From the NCBI GenBank assembly GCA_017436525.1, contig JAFSCX010000019.1, forward strand, positions 11,155 to 75,154: DNA of 64,000 nucleotides, given 5' to 3'. The DNA comes from Clostridia bacterium. GTDB lineage: Bacteria; Bacillota; Clostridia; Oscillospirales; QAKW01. Positions 4,156-21,085 of the stretch are shown one piece after another. The translations under genes and the position numbers were made by a program. The notes beneath the pieces were generated by a model. The model saw only the letters and a program-made list of their open reading frames with translations, made no database searches and was not told where the DNA came from. Within the stretch, counting starts at the first letter, position 1. Every line of letters begins with the position of its first letter.

Positions 4156-4504
4156 GGGCCGGATCAAGCCTGTAAGCCGAGTTCTGTCGAGAACAGTCAT
4201 CTATCTGGATCCCCCGTTACCGGAGGCCTCAAGCCACGCTTTCAAGGCTGCATGCGGGCGGGTCTCCCTCGCCTTTATCGGTGTTGCATCGGATAGGGTT
4301 TACAGACCCTCTATGTCACCATAGAGGGTGGTGAGCTCTTACCTCGCCTTTCCACCCTTACCGGCAAATGCCGGCGGTATATTTCTGTTGCACTTTCCCT
4401 AAGGTTACCCTCGGTGGGCGTTACCCACTATCCTGACCCGAGATGCTCGGACTTTCCTCCGCTGCACCAAAGGGCAACGGCGACTGTTCAGCTTGGTCCG
4501 ATTG
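4156..4504 (-). ncRNA. rnpB: RNase P RNA (bacterial type A)
   Basis: The reverse complement contains GGAGGAAAGTCCGAGC, GGGAAAGTGCAACAGAAA, GGTAAGGGTGGAAAGGCGAGGTAAGAGCTCACC, CCAGATAGATGA and ACAGAACTCGGCTTACAG. P1 pairing is cggaccaagc (4491-4500) with gcttgatccg (4160-4169). Confidence 0.93.
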
Positions 4505-16642: not shown

Positions 16643-19044
16643 AATACGATTACAGTGCAATTGAGAAAAAATGGCAAGCTTATTGGGATGAGCATGAAAG
16701 CTATAAGGTAGAGATCGACCATGAGAAGGAAAAATTCTTTGCTTTGGTCGAGTTCCCTTATCCTTCGGGCCAGGGCCTGCATGTGGGCCATCCCCGCAGC
16801 TATACGGCTTTGGATATTGTAAGCCGTAAAAAGAGAATGGAGGGCTTTAATGTCCTTTATCCCATGGGCTGGGATGCTTTCGGCCTTCCTACCGAGAATT
16901 TTGCTATTAAGAATAAAATTCATCCGGCCATCGTTACCAAAAATAATATTGCTCGCTTTAAGAGCCAGCTGAAATCCTTGGGCCTTTCCTTCGATTGGTC
17001 CCGCGAGATCAATACCACCGATCCCGAATATTATAAATGGACGCAGTGGATATTCCTGCAACTTTTCAAAAAGGGCCTTGCCTATAAGAAGGAAATGAAT
17101 GTAAACTGGTGCACCGGCTGTAAGGTGGTGCTTGCCAATGAAGAAGTAGTCAATGGTGTTTGCGAGCGCTGCGCAAGCCCTGTGGTCCATAAGGTGAAGA
17201 GCCAATGGATGCTGAAGATTACCGAATATGCCGAAAAGCTGATCAATGGATTGGATGATGTGGATTTCATTGACCGTGTCAAGACGCAGCAGCTCAATTG
17301 GATCGGGAAGTCTACCGGCGCTACGGTTCGTTTTGGTACGACCGTAGGGGAGGAGCTGGAGGTCTATACCACCCGCCCCGATACCCTCTTTGGTGCTACT
17401 TATATGGTGATCGCTCCCGAGCATCCCATGATCGATGCTTATCAGGATCGGATCAAAAATTATGAGGATGTGATCGCTTATCGGGAGGCCGCTGCCGCCA
17501 AGAGCGATTTTGAGCGCACCGAGCTGGTTAAGGAGAAGACGGGCGTTAAGATCGAGGGCATCTGCGGCATCAATCCGGTCAATGAAAAAGAGATTCCCAT
17601 CTTTGTTTCCGATTATGTCTTAATGTCTTATGGTACCGGCGCTATTATGGCTGTCCCTGCCCATGATACCCGCGACTATGAGTTTGCAAAAGTTTTTGAT
17701 CTGCCCATCATTCAGGTAGTGGCAGGGGGCGATATCGAGAAGGAAGCCTTCACCGATGTGGCCACCGGTACCATGGTTAATAGCGGATTCTTGAATGATC
17801 TTTCTGTCGAGGAAGCCAAAAAAGCCATCATTGAGCATCTTGCTAAAATCGGCAAGGGCGAGCCCAAGACCAATTATAAATTGCGGGATTGGGTCTTCTC
17901 TCGTCAACGCTATTGGGGCGAGCCGATTCCCATTGTTCATTGCCCCTGCTGCGGGCCTGTAGCAGTGCCGGAGGATCAGCTTCCCCTTTTGCTTCCCGAT
18001 GTGGATAGCTATGAGCCCACCGATAACGGGGAGAGCCCCTTGGCGGCCATGGATAGCTTTGTCAATACCACCTGCCCCAAGTGCGGCGCGCCCGCCAAGA
18101 GAGAGACCGATACCATGCCCCAGTGGGCAGGCTCTTCTTGGTATTTCCTGCGCTATATGGATCCCCATAATCATGATGCTTTGGCATCGGAGGAAGCTCT
18201 TTCCTATTGGGGCCCTGTCGATTGGTATAACGGCGGTATGGAGCATACTACCCTCCATCTGCTGTATAGCCGCTTCTGGCATAAATTCCTCTATGATATC
18301 GGCGTGGTTAAGACTGCCGAGCCCTATGCGAAGCGTACCTCTCATGGTATGATCTTGGGTGAGGGCGGCGAAAAGATGAGTAAATCCCGCGGGAATGTTG
18401 TCAACCCCGATGATATTGTCCGTGATTACGGTGCAGATACGCTGCGTACCTATGAAATGTTTATCGGCGACTTTGAGAAGAGCGCACCTTGGAATACTTC
18501 AAGTATTAAGGGCTGTAAGCGTTTCTTGGAGAAATCCTTTAATCTTTTGGAGATCCTTTGCGATGGTGATGAGATTTCCAAGGAGCTGGAACGTTCTTTC
18601 CATCTCGCCATTAAGAAGGTGGGCGATGATATCGATCATCTCAAGATGAATACCGCCCTTGCAACGCTCATGAGCCTGATCAATGAGATCACTGCGAAGG
18701 GAAGTATTAATAAAAAGGAATTGGAGATCTTTGTGAAGATGCTCTATCCCTTCGCGCCTCACCTGGGTGAGGAAATGTGGCAGCAGGCAGGCTTTGAAGG
18801 GGATATGACCTATGTGCCTTGGCCCGCCTATGATGAGAGCAAAACCGTAGCTTCTGAGGTAGAGATTGCAGTGCAGCTTCTGGGTAAGCTGAAGAGCCGC
18901 GTGATGATCCCTGCCGAGGCAAGCGAGGAGGATGTGCTTGCCATTGTAAAAGAAGATGATAAAATGAAACCCTTGCTGGAAGGCAAAAATATCGTAAAAG
19001 TCATCTATGTCAAAGGAAAATTGATCAATCTGATCGTAAGATAA
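16639..19044 (+). CDS. leuS: Leucine--tRNA ligase
   Basis: 801 aa. PYPSGxGLHVGH (HIGH) and KMSKSRGN (KMSKS) motifs, plus the CP1 editing domain. Confidence 0.96.
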
Positions 19045-19048
19045 GCTT

Positions 19049-19080
19049 AAAAGAGCGGTCCATCCGGACCGCTCTTTTAT
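19049..19080. terminator. Bidirectional intrinsic terminator between convergent leuS and the 19082-19516 gene
   Basis: 12-bp stem AAAGAGCGGTCC/GGACCGCTCTTT with a 4-nt loop, flanked by A and T runs. Confidence 0.8.
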
Positions 19081-19081
19081 A

Positions 19082-19516
19082 TTATAAAAACTTCTTCATC
19101 TGCTCAATGCTTCGTTCTTCTGCATATTTAAGATCGTTGGCCAGCGCCATTACCAATGGATCGCTGCCTTTGTAGCGGCGAAGATTTTTGATGCTTTTGG
19201 CAAGCCCTGCGGAATTGCCGCGAATCATCAGATGGGCAATGGAAGAGGGGGTACTGTCTAAAGTGCTTTTTATGGTCCCTGTCAGTAAGGTGTTTATTCG
19301 TGCAATGGGATTTGCGCTTTGGGGCGGAGTACCTCTTGCATGAAGATAATTGGCGGCAGTGCCGTAGATCTCCTGATACCTGCGATGCTGAGCCTGCAAG
19401 GCTTTTCGTATGTTCGGATCTTTGCTCTCTCTTAATACCGATTCAATTCCGACTTTACCCATTTCTGCGCTCTTATGAATATATTGGAGCATTTTAATGT
19501 CATGCATCATCATCAC
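19082..19516 (-). CDS. Hypothetical helical protein, possibly with a four-helix-bundle or CotF-like fold
   Basis: 144-aa minus-strand ORF with an SD (GAGGTG) overlapping a run of GTG/ATG starts, and its own terminator. No catalytic motif recognised, so function is not assigned. Confidence 0.6.
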   Translation of the reverse strand: MMMMHDIKMLQYIHKSAEMGKVGIESVLRESKDPNIRKALQAQHRRYQEIYGTAANYLHARGTPPQSANPIARINTLLTGTIKSTLDSTPSSIAHLMIRGNSAGLAKSIKNLRRYKGSDPLVMALANDLKYAEERSIEQMKKFL

Positions 19517-19564
19517 CTCAAAAGTATTATTTCCTTAATTTATCTTTTTTATTTGCGAAAACGC

Positions 19565-19594
19565 TTGACAATTGAGATCGATTTGTGCTAATAT
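19565..19594 (+). promoter_or_regulatory. Sigma-A promoter for the tRNA pair
   Basis: TTGACA (19565-19570), 18-nt spacer, extended -10 TGcTAATAT (19586-19594), about 15 nt upstream of tRNA-Gly. Confidence 0.6.
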
Positions 19595-19610
19595 ATTTGA
19601 GCAAATTCAT

Positions 19611-19685
19611 GCGGGTGTAGCACATCGGCTAGTGCATCGGCCTTCCAAGCCGAGGAGGTGGGTTCGATTCCCATCACCCGCTCCA
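19611..19685 (+). tRNA. tRNA-Gly (anticodon UCC)
   Basis: Acceptor stem GCGGGTG/CACCCGC, anticodon stem TCGGC/GCCGA with loop CTTCCAA, T-arm GGTTCGATTCC, encoded CCA. Confidence 0.9.
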
Positions 19686-19692
19686 TTTTTTT

Positions 19693-19769
19693 GCGCTTTT
19701 AGCTCAGCTGGATAGAGCAACTGCCTTCTAAGCAGTAGGTCGGGGGTTCGAGTCCCTCAAAGCGCGCCA
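19693..19769 (+). tRNA. tRNA-Arg (anticodon UCU)
   Basis: Acceptor stem GCGCTTT/AAAGCGC, D-arm AGCTCAGCTGGATAGAGC, anticodon loop CTTCTAA, T-arm GGTTCGAGTCC, encoded CCA. Confidence 0.9.
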
Positions 19770-19770
19770 A

Positions 19771-19805
19771 AAAGAAAGCATCGCTTCTGCGATGCTTTCT
19801 TTTAT
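19771..19805 (+). terminator. Intrinsic terminator of the tRNA operon
   Basis: 12-bp stem AGAAAGCATCGC/GCGATGCTTTCT, loop TTCT, followed by TTTAT. Confidence 0.8.
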
Positions 19806-19970
19806 CCAAGCCGAAGGCTTGGTATGTAATCCGCGTTAGCGGAATGTAATCACGCGTCAGCGTGTATGTTATCACCGCAAGGTACATTCTTCGGCTTGAT
19901 TACATGCGCAACTTATCGTTGCAATTACATACAATGCTTCGCATTGATTACATTCACACCTGCGGTGTGA
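19806..19970. repeat. Array of eight different mini-hairpins separated by the heptamer ATGTAAT (three forward, three as ATTACAT); unclassified
   Basis: Read directly. Hairpins lie at 19806-22, 19831-42, 19851-64, 19874-83, 19889-94, 19908-22, 19932-46 and 19954-70. Linkers lie at 19824-30, 19844-50, 19866-72 (ATGTTAT), 19899-905, 19924-30 and 19947-53. Confidence 0.85.
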
Positions 19971-20017
19971 TTTTAGATGAAGGGATTCAAACCTATTTGT
20001 ACTCTCTTTCCAGGTTG

Positions 20018-20076
20018 AAAAGTGGCTTAAATCATGTATTTATGCAGGTTTGGGCCACTTTTTGTTTTGTATTTTT
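20018..20076 (+). terminator. Terminator-like element with a large loop
   Basis: 9-bp stem AAAAGTGGC/GCCACTTTT enclosing 27 nt, followed by the T-rich run TTTTGTTTTGTATTTTT. The loop is atypically long, so confidence is low. Confidence 0.35.
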
Positions 20077-20143
20077 GATCGGCGGCAAGGTGTAAAAAAA
20101 CTTCTGATTTCTCTATTTTTTCTAAAAATGTGGCACCATTTCT

Positions 20144-21085
20144 GTGCAGTTTGAAATCAAAAAAAGCGATACCGGTCAAAACACATTGTATCTGACTGTG
20201 GCGCTCAAGAGTGTCGAGGCGAAAAAAATAGAAGCTGACGTCATGGAACCCGTTTGGCCCCGTGAGGGTACCGCCCAGGCTCTGGTGTCAACTTCTAATA
20301 TTAGTATATCCGAACTTTTTGAAAATGTCAATCCGGAAGACAAGAATTTTTTGAAATATGTACCGGAACGGTTTTTGAAAGATAATCAGCGTGTTGCAAA
20401 AACTGATTCGATGGAGGCGGAATCAAAGAGAATCGGTAATTATTTTGAAAAACAAGGTGAAAAAAAGGTTGACCTACAGGGTGATACCAATGCGGTCTAT
20501 GAGAAGTTGACCGCATTGATCAAGCAAGACCGTGCTGATCGGTATGGTTGGAAGAATGGGGAGGATACCACCAAGAGCGATCCGCTCTTTGATGAGATCG
20601 TTGCCAATTTGCATATCAATGACGATTCCTCTTTGATCGGAACTCAACAGAATTTTGTTGGCACCGCCGCTCTGCAAAAGGCCGGAATCAAGATTGATGG
20701 CTCAGTGGGAGATTATTCAATTGACCTTAAAGGAAAGGCCAAGATCGCCAAAGAATACAAGGCAATGAACCGCGAGATCCGCAATTATAAAAAGCGAATG
20801 AAAATGACTGAGCAGGAAATGCAAGCGGCGAAGGATTTCTATGAGGATCAAATCTCCGATGAGGAATTAAAAAAATTAGATGGTATTCGCCATAAGGTCG
20901 TGCGAGGTTATGTGGATCTGCTGATCAAGCGCCAAGGCCTTGATAAGCCCAACGGAAGAGTGCTGTTTGCAAGGGATGTGTACCGATTGGAGTATTTCCT
21001 TGATCGGATCATTAAGGACCTCGTAACTCCAATCTTTTTCGAAAAACAAAATAGAGTGTTGACAATCGCGAAATTTGCGGTATAA
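20144..21085 (+). CDS. Orphan hypothetical protein, probably horizontally acquired and possibly a fragment of a larger mobile-element protein
   Basis: 313-aa K/E/D-rich ORF with a GTG start, no SD, and only 6 in-frame codons upstream. Codon choice and A+T content visibly differ from the neighbours. No motif recognised. Confidence 0.5.
   Translation: MQFEIKKSDTGQNTLYLTVALKSVEAKKIEADVMEPVWPREGTAQALVSTSNISISELFENVNPEDKNFLKYVPERFLKDNQRVAKTDSMEAESKRIGNYFEKQGEKKVDLQGDTNAVYEKLTALIKQDRADRYGWKNGEDTTKSDPLFDEIVANLHINDDSSLIGTQQNFVGTAALQKAGIKIDGSVGDYSIDLKGKAKIAKEYKAMNREIRNYKKRMKMTEQEMQAAKDFYEDQISDEELKKLDGIRHKVVRGYVDLLIKRQGLDKPNGRVLFARDVYRLEYFLDRIIKDLVTPIFFEKQNRVLTIAKFAV

Follow-up and report, generated by a model that had tools for sequence, protein, structure and literature searches.

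The Gut-1 motif (Rfam RF01706) was described in one sentence by Weinberg et al. in 2010, from human gut sequence only and with 43 representatives; it was judged to be a noncoding RNA on the basis of covariation, and neither a function nor a gene association was stated (PMC2864571). It has been in Rfam since 2010 without a function, host, or gene association. For the intervening sequences (IVSs) of 23S rRNA and for their S23p/IVP proteins, an explanation has been lacking since about 1990. In the Coxiella 23S IVS, tandem GACAGAT heptamers of variable number lie upstream of the S23p open reading frame (ORF); the two termini pair into a stem of 28 bp, and the first repeat is where RNase III cleaves (PMC4990558). 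Here we describe an array in a 64,000-nt stretch of contig JAFSCX010000019.1 (hereafter, the window; assembly GCA_017436525.1), which comes from an uncultured Clostridia/Oscillospirales lineage of metagenome-assembled genomes (MAGs) of the ruminant hindgut. In this array (positions 19806 to 19970, plus strand), short hairpins are separated by the heptamer ATGTAAT and, farther on, by its complement ATTACAT. The array is a real, nonrandom structure and a diverged variant of the known, uncharacterized Gut-1 kind; in the broad sense, it very probably belongs to a Gut-1-type family. The explanation that we cautiously favor, as somewhat probable, is that it is a diverged, gene-less Gut-1-type element, i.e., the predicted structured RNA of an IVS-like cassette.

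The array contains six perfect mini-hairpins and one weak one, all given here on the plus strand. The outermost proximal hairpin, H1 (CCAAGCC-GAA-GGCTTGG; 19806 to 19822), is followed by the proximal half-array (19824 to 19872), in which two copies of ATGTAAT (19824 to 19830 and 19844 to 19850) and one ATGTTAT (19866 to 19872) have the perfect hairpins H2 (19831 to 19842) and H3 (19851 to 19864) between them. Beyond a center (19873 to 19898), the distal half-array (19899 to 19970) carries three copies of the complementary heptamer ATTACAT (19899 to 19905, 19924 to 19930, and 19947 to 19953) with the perfect hairpins H6 (19908 to 19922), H7 (19932 to 19946), and H8 (19954 to 19970), the last being terminator-like together with the following TTTT. 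An earlier note on this DNA had counted eight hairpins; H1, H2, H3, H6, H7, and H8 are indeed perfect, while H4 has only 3 pairs and "H5" (C-TTCG-G) is not a hairpin. The linkers that it had read (ATGTAAT on the left and the complement on the right) stand as well, apart from ATGTTAT, which lies one base to the right of the place implied. Within the center, positions 19873 to 19883 are a truncated inverted copy of H8 and form the weak hairpin H4 (ACC-GCAA-GGT), and positions 19889 to 19898 (CTTCGGCTTG) are the 5' arm and loop of H1 in inverted form, which yields a long-range helix, P1 (CAAGCCGAAG paired with CTTCGGCTTG). The earlier suggestion that the innermost modules are inverted copies of the outermost ones is borne out, both long-range complements being exact (19807 to 19816 with 19889 to 19898; 19873 to 19879 with 19961 to 19967).

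Five of the 10 exact copies of ATGTAAT/ATTACAT in the whole 64 kb fall within 130 bp. When each of the six hairpin segments was shuffled, the observed stem was reached in 0.0002 to 0.05 of the trials (product of the six fractions, ~2e-15), and a perfect 5-bp stem is present in just 1.5% of the 16-nt windows of the 64 kb; chance is thus excluded for the six hairpins. The fold z-score of the array is -6.7 on the plus strand and -6.0 on the minus strand. Assemblies made independently (ENA and Logan) contain exactly the same array, which excludes an assembly artifact.

The array had been thought unique, and about 20 arrays of the same grammar were found in Clostridia MAGs from ruminant and human guts, in metagenomes, and in phage-like contigs. 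The complete element consists, in order, of a terminator (mostly that of a tRNA gene), a half-array, a center, a complementary half-array, and usually a PF05635 gene, whose product is a small, Avd-like four-helix-bundle protein. Within a half-array, an RTGNWAT heptamer separates 3 to 5 short, unrelated, perfectly paired hairpins. The window holds every part of the complete element but the PF05635 gene. The copies share this grammar and not their sequence, and they are thus not the near-identical copies of a transposable-element or repetitive extragenic palindromic (REP) family. The same architecture with other heptamers was seen at loci L010, L019, L023, L031, L047, L060, L067, L074, L150, and L171, and further at L250, L352, L372 to L386, L387, L388, L392 to L395, and L400. 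The heptamers are related across arrays (ATGTAAT, ATGAAAT, GTGAAAT, ATGATAT, GTGAAGC, and others), and in all two-sided arrays, which cover at least 8 heptamer variants, the right heptamer complements the left one (e.g., ATATCAT/ATGATAT at L023, GTGAAGT/ACTTCAC at L047, GTTATGA/TCATAAC at L060, and ATGAAAT/ATTTCAT at L074; likewise GTGATG/CATCAC at L019 and ATGAAT/ATTCAT at L031). The array of L067 (GTGATATG) is one-sided. At L032 (7125 to 7175), tandem ATGATATCAT words without hairpins stand where L031 carries its array.

These arrays were collected in several ways. We scanned 80 Ldh_2 loci of related MAGs; pattern scans with ATGTAAT added L150 and L171 (metagenomes) and L250 (an IMG/VR contig). 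The scans of metagenome and viral data for three ATGTAAT words returned mostly chance matches or tandem repeats of eukaryotes and giant viruses, with L150, L171, and L250 as the only true relatives, and a viral scan for GTGATATG returned L352 only. A strict-gap detector of hairpin chains missed arrays because the center interrupts the chain. Among the 117 inter-linker segments, 95 are perfect hairpins. The linker-to-linker periods form a continuum from 14 to 32 nt without a helical-repeat preference; a double-stranded DNA (dsDNA) heptad array for a binding protein, which had been among the first suggestions, is accordingly not favored, and Omega-type WATCACW heptads or phased dsDNA iterons were rejected because the periods are unphased. 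The heptamer ends AT (or GT...AT) can lengthen the neighboring hairpins by 2 bp, leaving a 3-nt connector (GAA, GTA, or GAT in one half; TTC, TAC, or ATC in the other). The reading of each linker as a start-stop mini-ORF was dropped, since ATG-TAA is specific to one heptamer.

The arrays of the window, L010, L150, L250, and L023 are homologous and have the same hairpin order. They have H1 in common (CCAAGCC-GNA-GGYTTGG); L010, L150, and L023 conserve this hairpin, and in L250 it is degenerate. The hairpin CAATGC-TTC-GCATTG, i.e., H7 of the window, is identical in L150 and L250; CAACAC-TTC-GTGTTG is found in L010 and L023, and CAGTTCGC...GCGAACTG in L010 and L250. A recurrent feature is that the half-hairpin beside the innermost linker is an exact inverted copy, loop included, of the outermost hairpin of the other half. 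The inverted copy that forms P1 covaries across the relatives (CAAGCCGAAGG/CCTTCGGCTTG in L010, CAAGCCGCAGG/CCTGCGGCTTG in L023, CAAGCCGCC/GGCGGCTTG in L150, and CAATCCAAA/TTTGGATTG in L250). Loop types are mirrored between the halves, and their polarity differs between subfamilies; a rule of one loop polarity per strand was rejected accordingly. At L250 (324 to 3906 and 4020 to 4232), the array lies beside phage portal and terminase genes, and the promoter of a membrane-protein gene (TTGACT-17-TATAAT) has its -35 box overlapped by the last hairpin arm of the array.

The link to Gut-1 comes through the relatives. The consensus of the Gut-1 model (three variable hairpins split by GUGAAAU) has the same unit grammar and models one half of the GUGAAAU version of the element. 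Against a gathering score of 50 bits, the proximal halves of L387 score 72.9 and 69.4 bits, that of L388 scores 62.6 bits, and that of L394 scores 60.5 bits; the distal half of L388 scores 47.5 bits on the opposite strand, and L372, which is of the ATGAAAT type, scores 39.3 and 26.7 bits (E = 1e-6 and 2e-3), below the threshold. In its flanks, the Gut-1 seed alignment already includes tRNA and terminator sequence, together with a second half that carries the complementary AUAUCAC. The window has at least three variable hairpins split by a conserved RUGNWAU heptamer, as Gut-1 does, and it shares the covariation of Gut-1 through its stems compared with those of L010 and through the 11 covarying pairs of a sister subfamily described below. 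When half-arrays of different subfamilies were aligned with MAFFT, the inner linkers misaligned. The earlier note, which could match the array to no known class, was mistaken on this point, although the match comes through the relatives only and the window itself is not scored by Gut-1. Rfam Gut-1 covers part of the family, the AUGUAAU, AUGAAAU, and GUGAAGC versions being missed or below the threshold.

The second link is to a protein family. Directly downstream of the arrays of L074, L150, and L171 lies a PF05635 (23S_rRNA_IVP) gene (E = 8e-27, 7e-18, and 2e-7, respectively), and the same holds for L372 to L386, L387 to L395, and L400. Searches with tblastn found no other IVP gene in the loci collected until then, so the adjacency is not due to chance. 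The IVP of L074 type has thousands of homologs at 85% identity or more, mostly on contigs of <1.5 kb, and in 15/15 loci fetched for three such homologs an ATGAAAT/ATTTCAT array was present, bounded on one side by the stop codon of a GGGtGRT-family gene and on the other by the ribosome-binding site of the IVP gene. At L372 (1247 to 2245), L376 (1204 to 2202), and L074 (6997 to 7296), the ATGAAAT array and the IVP gene close a conserved operon of a PTAC-domain gene, an unknown gene, and GGGtGRT (PF14057), the first hairpin spanning the GGGtGRT stop codon. When IMG/VR was scanned twice with IVP alignments, 9 loci representing 7 lineages were recovered. Ahead of their IVP genes, L387/L389 carry two tandem GTGAAAT/ATTTCAC arrays; L388/L390 carry a tRNA-Ser, a terminator, and an array; L392/L393 carry a tRNA-Leu, a terminator, and a GTGAAGC/CCTTCAC array; L394/L395 carry a tRNA-like 3' end, a terminator, and an ATGATAT/ATATCAT array; L391 carries a tRNA-Tyr, a terminator, and an inverted repeat of ~30 bp without branch hairpins; L396 carries contiguous GACAATK heptamers; and L397 carries nothing obvious. 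The same order of terminator, array, and IVP gene occurs in GenBank MT835590 (human feces). At L391 (530 to 640), a tRNA-Thr, the tRNA-Tyr-GTA, and the terminator precede the inverted repeat, which is made of linker-like words (ACTTATTACC...GGTAATAGTGAATAAGT); this hairpin-free repeat may be a simple form of the element.

Heptamers accompany PF05635 genes beyond the Clostridia. In Treponema saccharophilum plasmid pTS1 (NZ_AP025289.1; L399, 350 to 680), ~40 contiguous heptamers (GTGAAAG, ATGAAAG, and NGGAAAG) followed by ~8 complementary CTYTCCG heptamers stand ahead of an IVP gene, with no hairpins between them. Two PF05635 ORFs on Nostoc plasmids are flanked by heptamer tracts in inverted orientation, i.e., AGTCGGA x4 ... 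TCCGACY x5 (L401, 505 to 545 and 1040 to 1080) and AATTCGT x4 ... ACGAATT x4 (L402, 525 to 560 and 915 to 950); the next genes at L401 are xisH and xisI. In Monoglobus pectinilyticus (L398; NZ_OY725736.1, 80876 to 81217), a PF05635 ORF that has no annotation separates the hsdS and hsdR genes of a type I restriction system and is preceded by a repeated TAATTAGGAATGAG word. It seems to be a general rule that a PF05635 gene is accompanied by a heptamer array and its complement, and the Gut-1 layout seems to be the version in which both halves lie upstream and hairpins stand between the heptamers. We propose, tentatively and with the odds rather against it, that heptamer arrays and PF05635 proteins constitute one widespread two-part system in which an array is recognized or processed by its own small oligomeric protein. 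If so, Gut-1, the IVP heptamer tracts of spirochetes and cyanobacteria (possibly including the short tandemly repeated repetitive [STRR] sequences), and the 23S rRNA IVSs would be united in a system whose arrays come with or without branch hairpins, and the hairpins of the Clostridia would be its hypervariable, strain-specific component, their turnover being functional rather than spacer drift.

A related explanation, which overlaps with the one we favor and which we regard as possible though doubtful, is that the heptamer is the putative recognition word of an oligomeric PF05635 protein on RNA, single-stranded DNA, or dsDNA. One subunit would sit on each heptamer, with the hairpins as stand-offs, in autoregulation or in a ribonucleoprotein. 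In its favor, each IVP lineage goes with a heptamer variant of its own (the L074 type with ATGAAAT, L387 and L388 with GTGAAAT, L394 with ATGATAT, L392 with GTGAAGC, L150 and L171 with ATGTAAT, and Treponema with NTGAAAG); the linkers are identical within an array at 3 to 5 per half, and the solved structure closest to the IVP (PDB 2RLD; E = 3e-30) has 5 chains in the entry. The orphan arrays, including that of the window, nevertheless stay structured without an adjacent gene, and the 14- to 32-nt linker periods rule out phased binding to dsDNA. Moreover, PF05635 proteins, judging from bAvd, are not known to bind sequence-specifically, which also counts against it.

The arrays change rapidly while keeping their pairing. 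L010/L011 (GCA_045586045.1) encode an Ldh_2 protein 100% identical to that of the window, and the window and L010 are 94.6% identical in the genes and 94.3% in the tail that follows the array, compared with 69% in the array interior. Pairing is nonetheless kept in every hairpin: H2 differs in its loop only, H3 is swapped for another perfect hairpin, and H7 differs by two compensatory pairs. The central base of the L010 heptamer is variable (ATGTAAT, ATGCAAT, and ATGGAAT). Between the orthologous loci L150 and L171, whose flanking gene is 72% identical, ATGTAAT is unchanged and all hairpins are different. Since the hairpins of the window, an orphan copy, are still perfect and differ from those of L010 by compensated changes, a force that keeps pairing acts without a gene in cis. 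Strains differ in the number of units (L392 versus L393; L380 versus L383). In L393 (526 to 560; compared with L392, 446 to 520), the 5' arm of the terminator is fused to H1 (AAAAAACGTGCC-TGTC-GGCACG) and three units are lost, which shows recombination between similar hairpin arms. Contigs break inside the arrays of L003, L004, L005, L171, L047, L352, L375, L379, L381, L382, and L384 to L386; together with the short IVP contigs, this suggests strain-level hypervariability or a multicopy state that disrupts assemblies.

This pace of change is what would be expected if the arrays were a neutral by-product, i.e., junk repeats grown by slippage whose palindromes are perfected by intrastrand template switching. 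Unit numbers that vary between strains and 69% identity inside against 94% outside speak for it, and template switching can mimic compensatory change, as is established for quasi-palindromes. We consider it improbable. The grammar and the neighboring gene persist over Clostridia, spirochetes, cyanobacteria, and Coxiella, the heptamer is kept where the flanking gene is only 72% identical, and the U.G intermediates and conserved one-strand G.U pair described below are unexpected from correction at the DNA level.

The left border of the array bears on another alternative. L010 follows a tRNA-Arg-CCG gene, and its terminator and left-hand gene are unlike those of the window; when positions 19082 to 19803 were compared with L010 (1 to 424), the left-hand DNA was unlike and homology broke exactly at the TTTTAT before H1. 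Across the family, tRNA genes of Arg-TCT, Arg-CCG, Val-GAC, Ser-GCT (twice), Gln-CTG, and Leu-TAA precede arrays with their terminators, and some arrays instead follow the terminators or stop codons of protein genes. Homologous terminators plus H1 occur at L019 and L394 behind different tRNA-type sequences; thus, the terminator, which travels with the array in other loci, behaves as the first hairpin of the element. In this alternative, terminator, array, and IVP gene would together make up a small, mobile, IVS-like selfish cassette that lands after tRNA genes or other gene ends, with the array as its end or recombination structure at the DNA level, and in one variant of this explanation the hairpins may be tiny insertions into a heptamer tract with the linkers as duplicated target words. 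Homologous arrays after different tRNA genes, with homology starting exactly at the T-tract or A-tract of the terminator, are in line with it, as are the 94.6% identity that the window shares with L010 on the right side of the array next to a different tRNA and gene on the left, the recurrence of the same hairpins with different linkers (CAACAC-GAA-GTGTTG in L010/L023; CAATGC-TTC-GCATTG in window/L150/L250), the frequent contig breaks within arrays, and the branched rod that DNA parameters give on both strands. IVP genes are found as single-gene insertions between hsdS and hsdR and, as reported in a 2013 survey, within cas operons (PMC3936711). A paper on the Coxiella 23S IVS calls it a selfish genetic element and cites the view of IVSs as formerly mobile (PMC4990558). 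We still judge this explanation unlikely. No clean empty site or target duplication was found, the empty-site comparison of L066 with L067 giving a complex, messy indel whose junctions are not clean; no transposase or integrase is nearby; elements of 13 to 19 bp would be smaller than anything known to move; and gain or loss of units by slippage explains the dynamics (L392 versus L393) equally well. The earlier idea of a remnant from an element that had exploited the tRNA locus agrees with the broader picture, in which arrays usually stand upstream of a small PF05635 cassette gene as its partner and follow at least 7 different tRNA genes. An inverton or shufflon was rejected, because the 70- to 90-bp segments fall short of the length required and because crossing over within the linkers would leave the hairpins whole.

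Whether the element acts as RNA or as DNA was addressed mainly with an alignment of 8 sequences of the ATGAAAT type, i.e., of a sister subfamily and not of the window. In this alignment, 96.9% of the cells pair (slid controls, 30 to 47%), and 11 pairs are changed on both sides, compared with a shuffle mean of 4.0 (0/500 shuffles reach 11). G.U and U.G pairs occur on the sense strand, one G.U in a distal hairpin being present in 7/8 sequences, and a series from C-G through U.G to U-A runs across L372, L378, and L374. RNAalifold predicted a 13-bp long-range helix that pairs the first linker and an arm of H1 with the center and the first distal linker and contains one covarying pair. At L074/L372, L392, and L150, the array and the ribosome-binding site are too close together for a promoter to fit between them, which places the array within the leader of the IVP mRNA. 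Our confidence that the element acts as RNA is moderate. The first reading of the locus as a structured noncoding RNA is supported by the Gut-1 relatives, the covariation, the sense-strand G.U pairs, and the 13-bp helix; the stack of four-way junctions that it pictured is the minimum free energy (MFE) structure with DNA parameters only, and three linker changes in L010 are uncompensated.

On these grounds, we favor an element that would work as RNA on the tRNA-sense strand. The hairpins would fold locally, and the complementary heptamers, together with H1 and the center, would pair at long range into a branched duplex. By analogy with the 23S IVS, this duplex might be an RNase III processing site, a binding platform for the oligomeric IVP protein, or both. 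Hairpins that serve as spacers or branches would be selected for pairing only, so that their sequences would be free to change. The copy in the window would then be a relic that still folds, or the partner of an IVP protein encoded elsewhere in the genome.

Several observations weigh against this explanation. The Gut-1 model gave no match at E<=10 to the window (19000 to 20600; 19795 to 19985) or to the homologous arrays of L150 and L171, which places the AUGUAAU version outside the curated family; with no Gut-1 score, the window's membership rests on architecture, context, and the chain of homology. No PF05635 gene is present in the 64-kb window by tblastn, and no promoter was found for the window's array, which has a strong terminator immediately upstream. 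At L171, L250, L387, L388, and L394, a promoter stands downstream of the array and ahead of the gene, so that the array is not within the mRNA leader. The halves mirror each other across the two strands (Gut-1 matches both strands, and loop types are mirrored), a symmetry for which a DNA-level dyad or an inverted duplication would account just as well as pairing of the RNA. Three changes in the L010 linkers are without compensation, and the wobble bias pooled over all families is small (5 G.T versus 1 A.C). With RNA parameters, the MFE fold of the window has -65.4 kcal/mol, and the alternatives (local hairpins only, -48.0 kcal/mol; one long-range linker pair, -53.0 kcal/mol; P1 plus the other local hairpins, -54.5 kcal/mol) are close to one another in energy; the full branched rod is the MFE structure with DNA parameters only, on both strands, at ~-43 kcal/mol. 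Finally, RNase III processing and IVP binding are drawn from the 23S IVS literature and from gene adjacency, and we hold them with low confidence.

In the window, the array stands in the order LeuRS gene, 144-amino-acid (aa) orphan gene (minus strand), tRNA-Gly, tRNA-Arg(TCT), terminator, array, 170-nt tail, orphan 313-aa ORF, Ldh_2, malic enzyme, and Ca-ATPase. The upstream transcription unit of tRNA-Gly(TCC) and tRNA-Arg(TCT) (19611 to 19769, plus strand; ARAGORN and Rfam tRNA) has a promoter ahead of it (TTGACA-18-TAATAT; 19565 to 19594) and ends in an intrinsic terminator (19770 to 19803, plus strand) with a 15-bp perfect stem, an A-tract, and a T-tract; the tRNAs and the terminator are as the earlier note had described them. 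Directly after H8, the short tail TTTTAGATGAAGGGATTC (19971 to 19992, plus strand) resembles in sequence the leader and Shine-Dalgarno element ahead of the PF05635 gene of L150 (TTTTGATGCGAAAGGAACC), and tblastn found no remnant of an IVP gene in the window's tail (best E = 0.25). With neither gene nor remnant, the array is an orphan copy, like the arrays of L010, L019, L023, L047, and L250, which also have no adjacent PF05635 gene. A terminator-like hairpin (AAAAGTGGC...GCCACTTTT; 20018 to 20062, plus strand), conserved in L010, may be the former 3' end of the cassette. The 313-aa ORF (20144 to 21085, plus strand) is a near-orphan with 2 database relatives only and no Pfam match; its counterpart in L010 (925 to 2003) is broken into ORFs of 102 and 232 aa, so it is possibly not a functional gene. 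The 144-aa and 313-aa flanking proteins have few homologs, and the contigs of relatives end at the tRNA. RNase P RNA class A (4157 to 4499, minus strand; 269 bits) is, besides the two tRNAs, the sole match at the Rfam gathering score in the window.

For the window itself, the message is a modest one, i.e., an orphan copy with putative activity only. More broadly, the arrays are an intergenic class that evolves ~6 times faster than its flanks and breaks short-read assemblies. Among known systems, CRISPR- or TIGR-like guide-RNA arrays, in which the heptamers would be the repeats and the hairpins the spacers, superficially resemble them in their short constant repeats, variable inserts, insert turnover, and adjacent small protein gene. 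TIGR-Tas likewise has very short repeats beside a small gene, a palindromic subclass (the "stem-loop arrays" with variable palindromes), and repeats that covary with the protein lineage (PMC12045711). Such a role is extremely unlikely here, because the inserts are self-complementary hairpins of 9 to 19 nt with loops of 3 to 5 nt and cannot guide, whereas TIGR needs two nonpalindromic spacers of 8 to 12 nt per unit amid alternating repeats or stems of likewise 8 to 12 nt, box C/D, and a Nop-domain Tas gene; no Nop or cas gene was found here. TIGR-Tas was rejected by comparison with the published description (no room for spacers and no Nop domain), and CRISPR, with repeats of 23 to 55 bp, nonpalindromic spacers of about that size, and cas genes, was rejected on account of the 7-nt repeat, the self-complementary inserts, and the lack of cas genes. 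Also rejected were attC sites; type III toxin-antitoxin systems (ToxI-like), in which near-identical direct repeats of 34 to 45 nt precede a terminator and an endoRNase toxin gene, as the units here differ, the halves are inverted, and the downstream ORF has no Abi/ToxN domain; a box C/D or k-turn reading of RUGA words, as the halves are simply complementary; and a MazF UACAU decoy, as that word is confined to the ATTACAT version.

REP sequences and the mosaic elements built from them (BIME) in enterobacteria are also extragenic clusters of palindromes in alternating orientation with conserved linkers at the 3' ends of transcription units. Their palindromes represent just one or two sequences, carry a GTAG/CGTC tag, number in the hundreds, and are linked to RAYT transposases; this identity was rejected, since all palindromes of the window differ, the linker alone is conserved, and there is one array in 64 kb. 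The STRR heptamer repeats of cyanobacteria are reportedly tandem heptamers in intergenic DNA, alongside small dispersed hairpin repeats. They differ in having no hairpins between the heptamers, and they resemble our arrays in that two Nostoc PF05635 genes are flanked by such tracts in inverted orientation, an observation on two loci; these tracts may tie the classic cyanobacterial heptamers to the PF05635 family.

The 23S IVSs of Leptospira and Coxiella share with the arrays the same protein family beside tandem heptamers and a copy number that varies between strains (PMC4990558). Their complementary termini form a stem, and their RNA is cut by RNase III. They lie inside helix 45 of 23S rRNA with repeats that flank the ORF, whereas the window's array stands behind the terminator of a tRNA gene, lacks an ORF, keeps its two halves on the same side, and alternates its heptamers with hairpins. 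The window element is not itself an IVS insertion into 23S rRNA (helix 25 or 45), as no rRNA was found in the window and the array follows tRNA genes. Gut-1 differs in that its published motif is one half, without the complementary half, the long-range helix, the PF05635 gene, or the tRNA link, and the heptamer of the window is AUGUAAU. The likeness lies in the short variable hairpins, the conserved heptamer (GUGAAAU or GUGAUAU), the origin in gut Clostridia-type sequence, and, in the seeds, the place after a tRNA gene and terminator. Gut-1 and the 23S IVSs are in turn tied to each other by the same protein family, by the logic of a heptamer plus its complement, and by attachment to stable-RNA genes.

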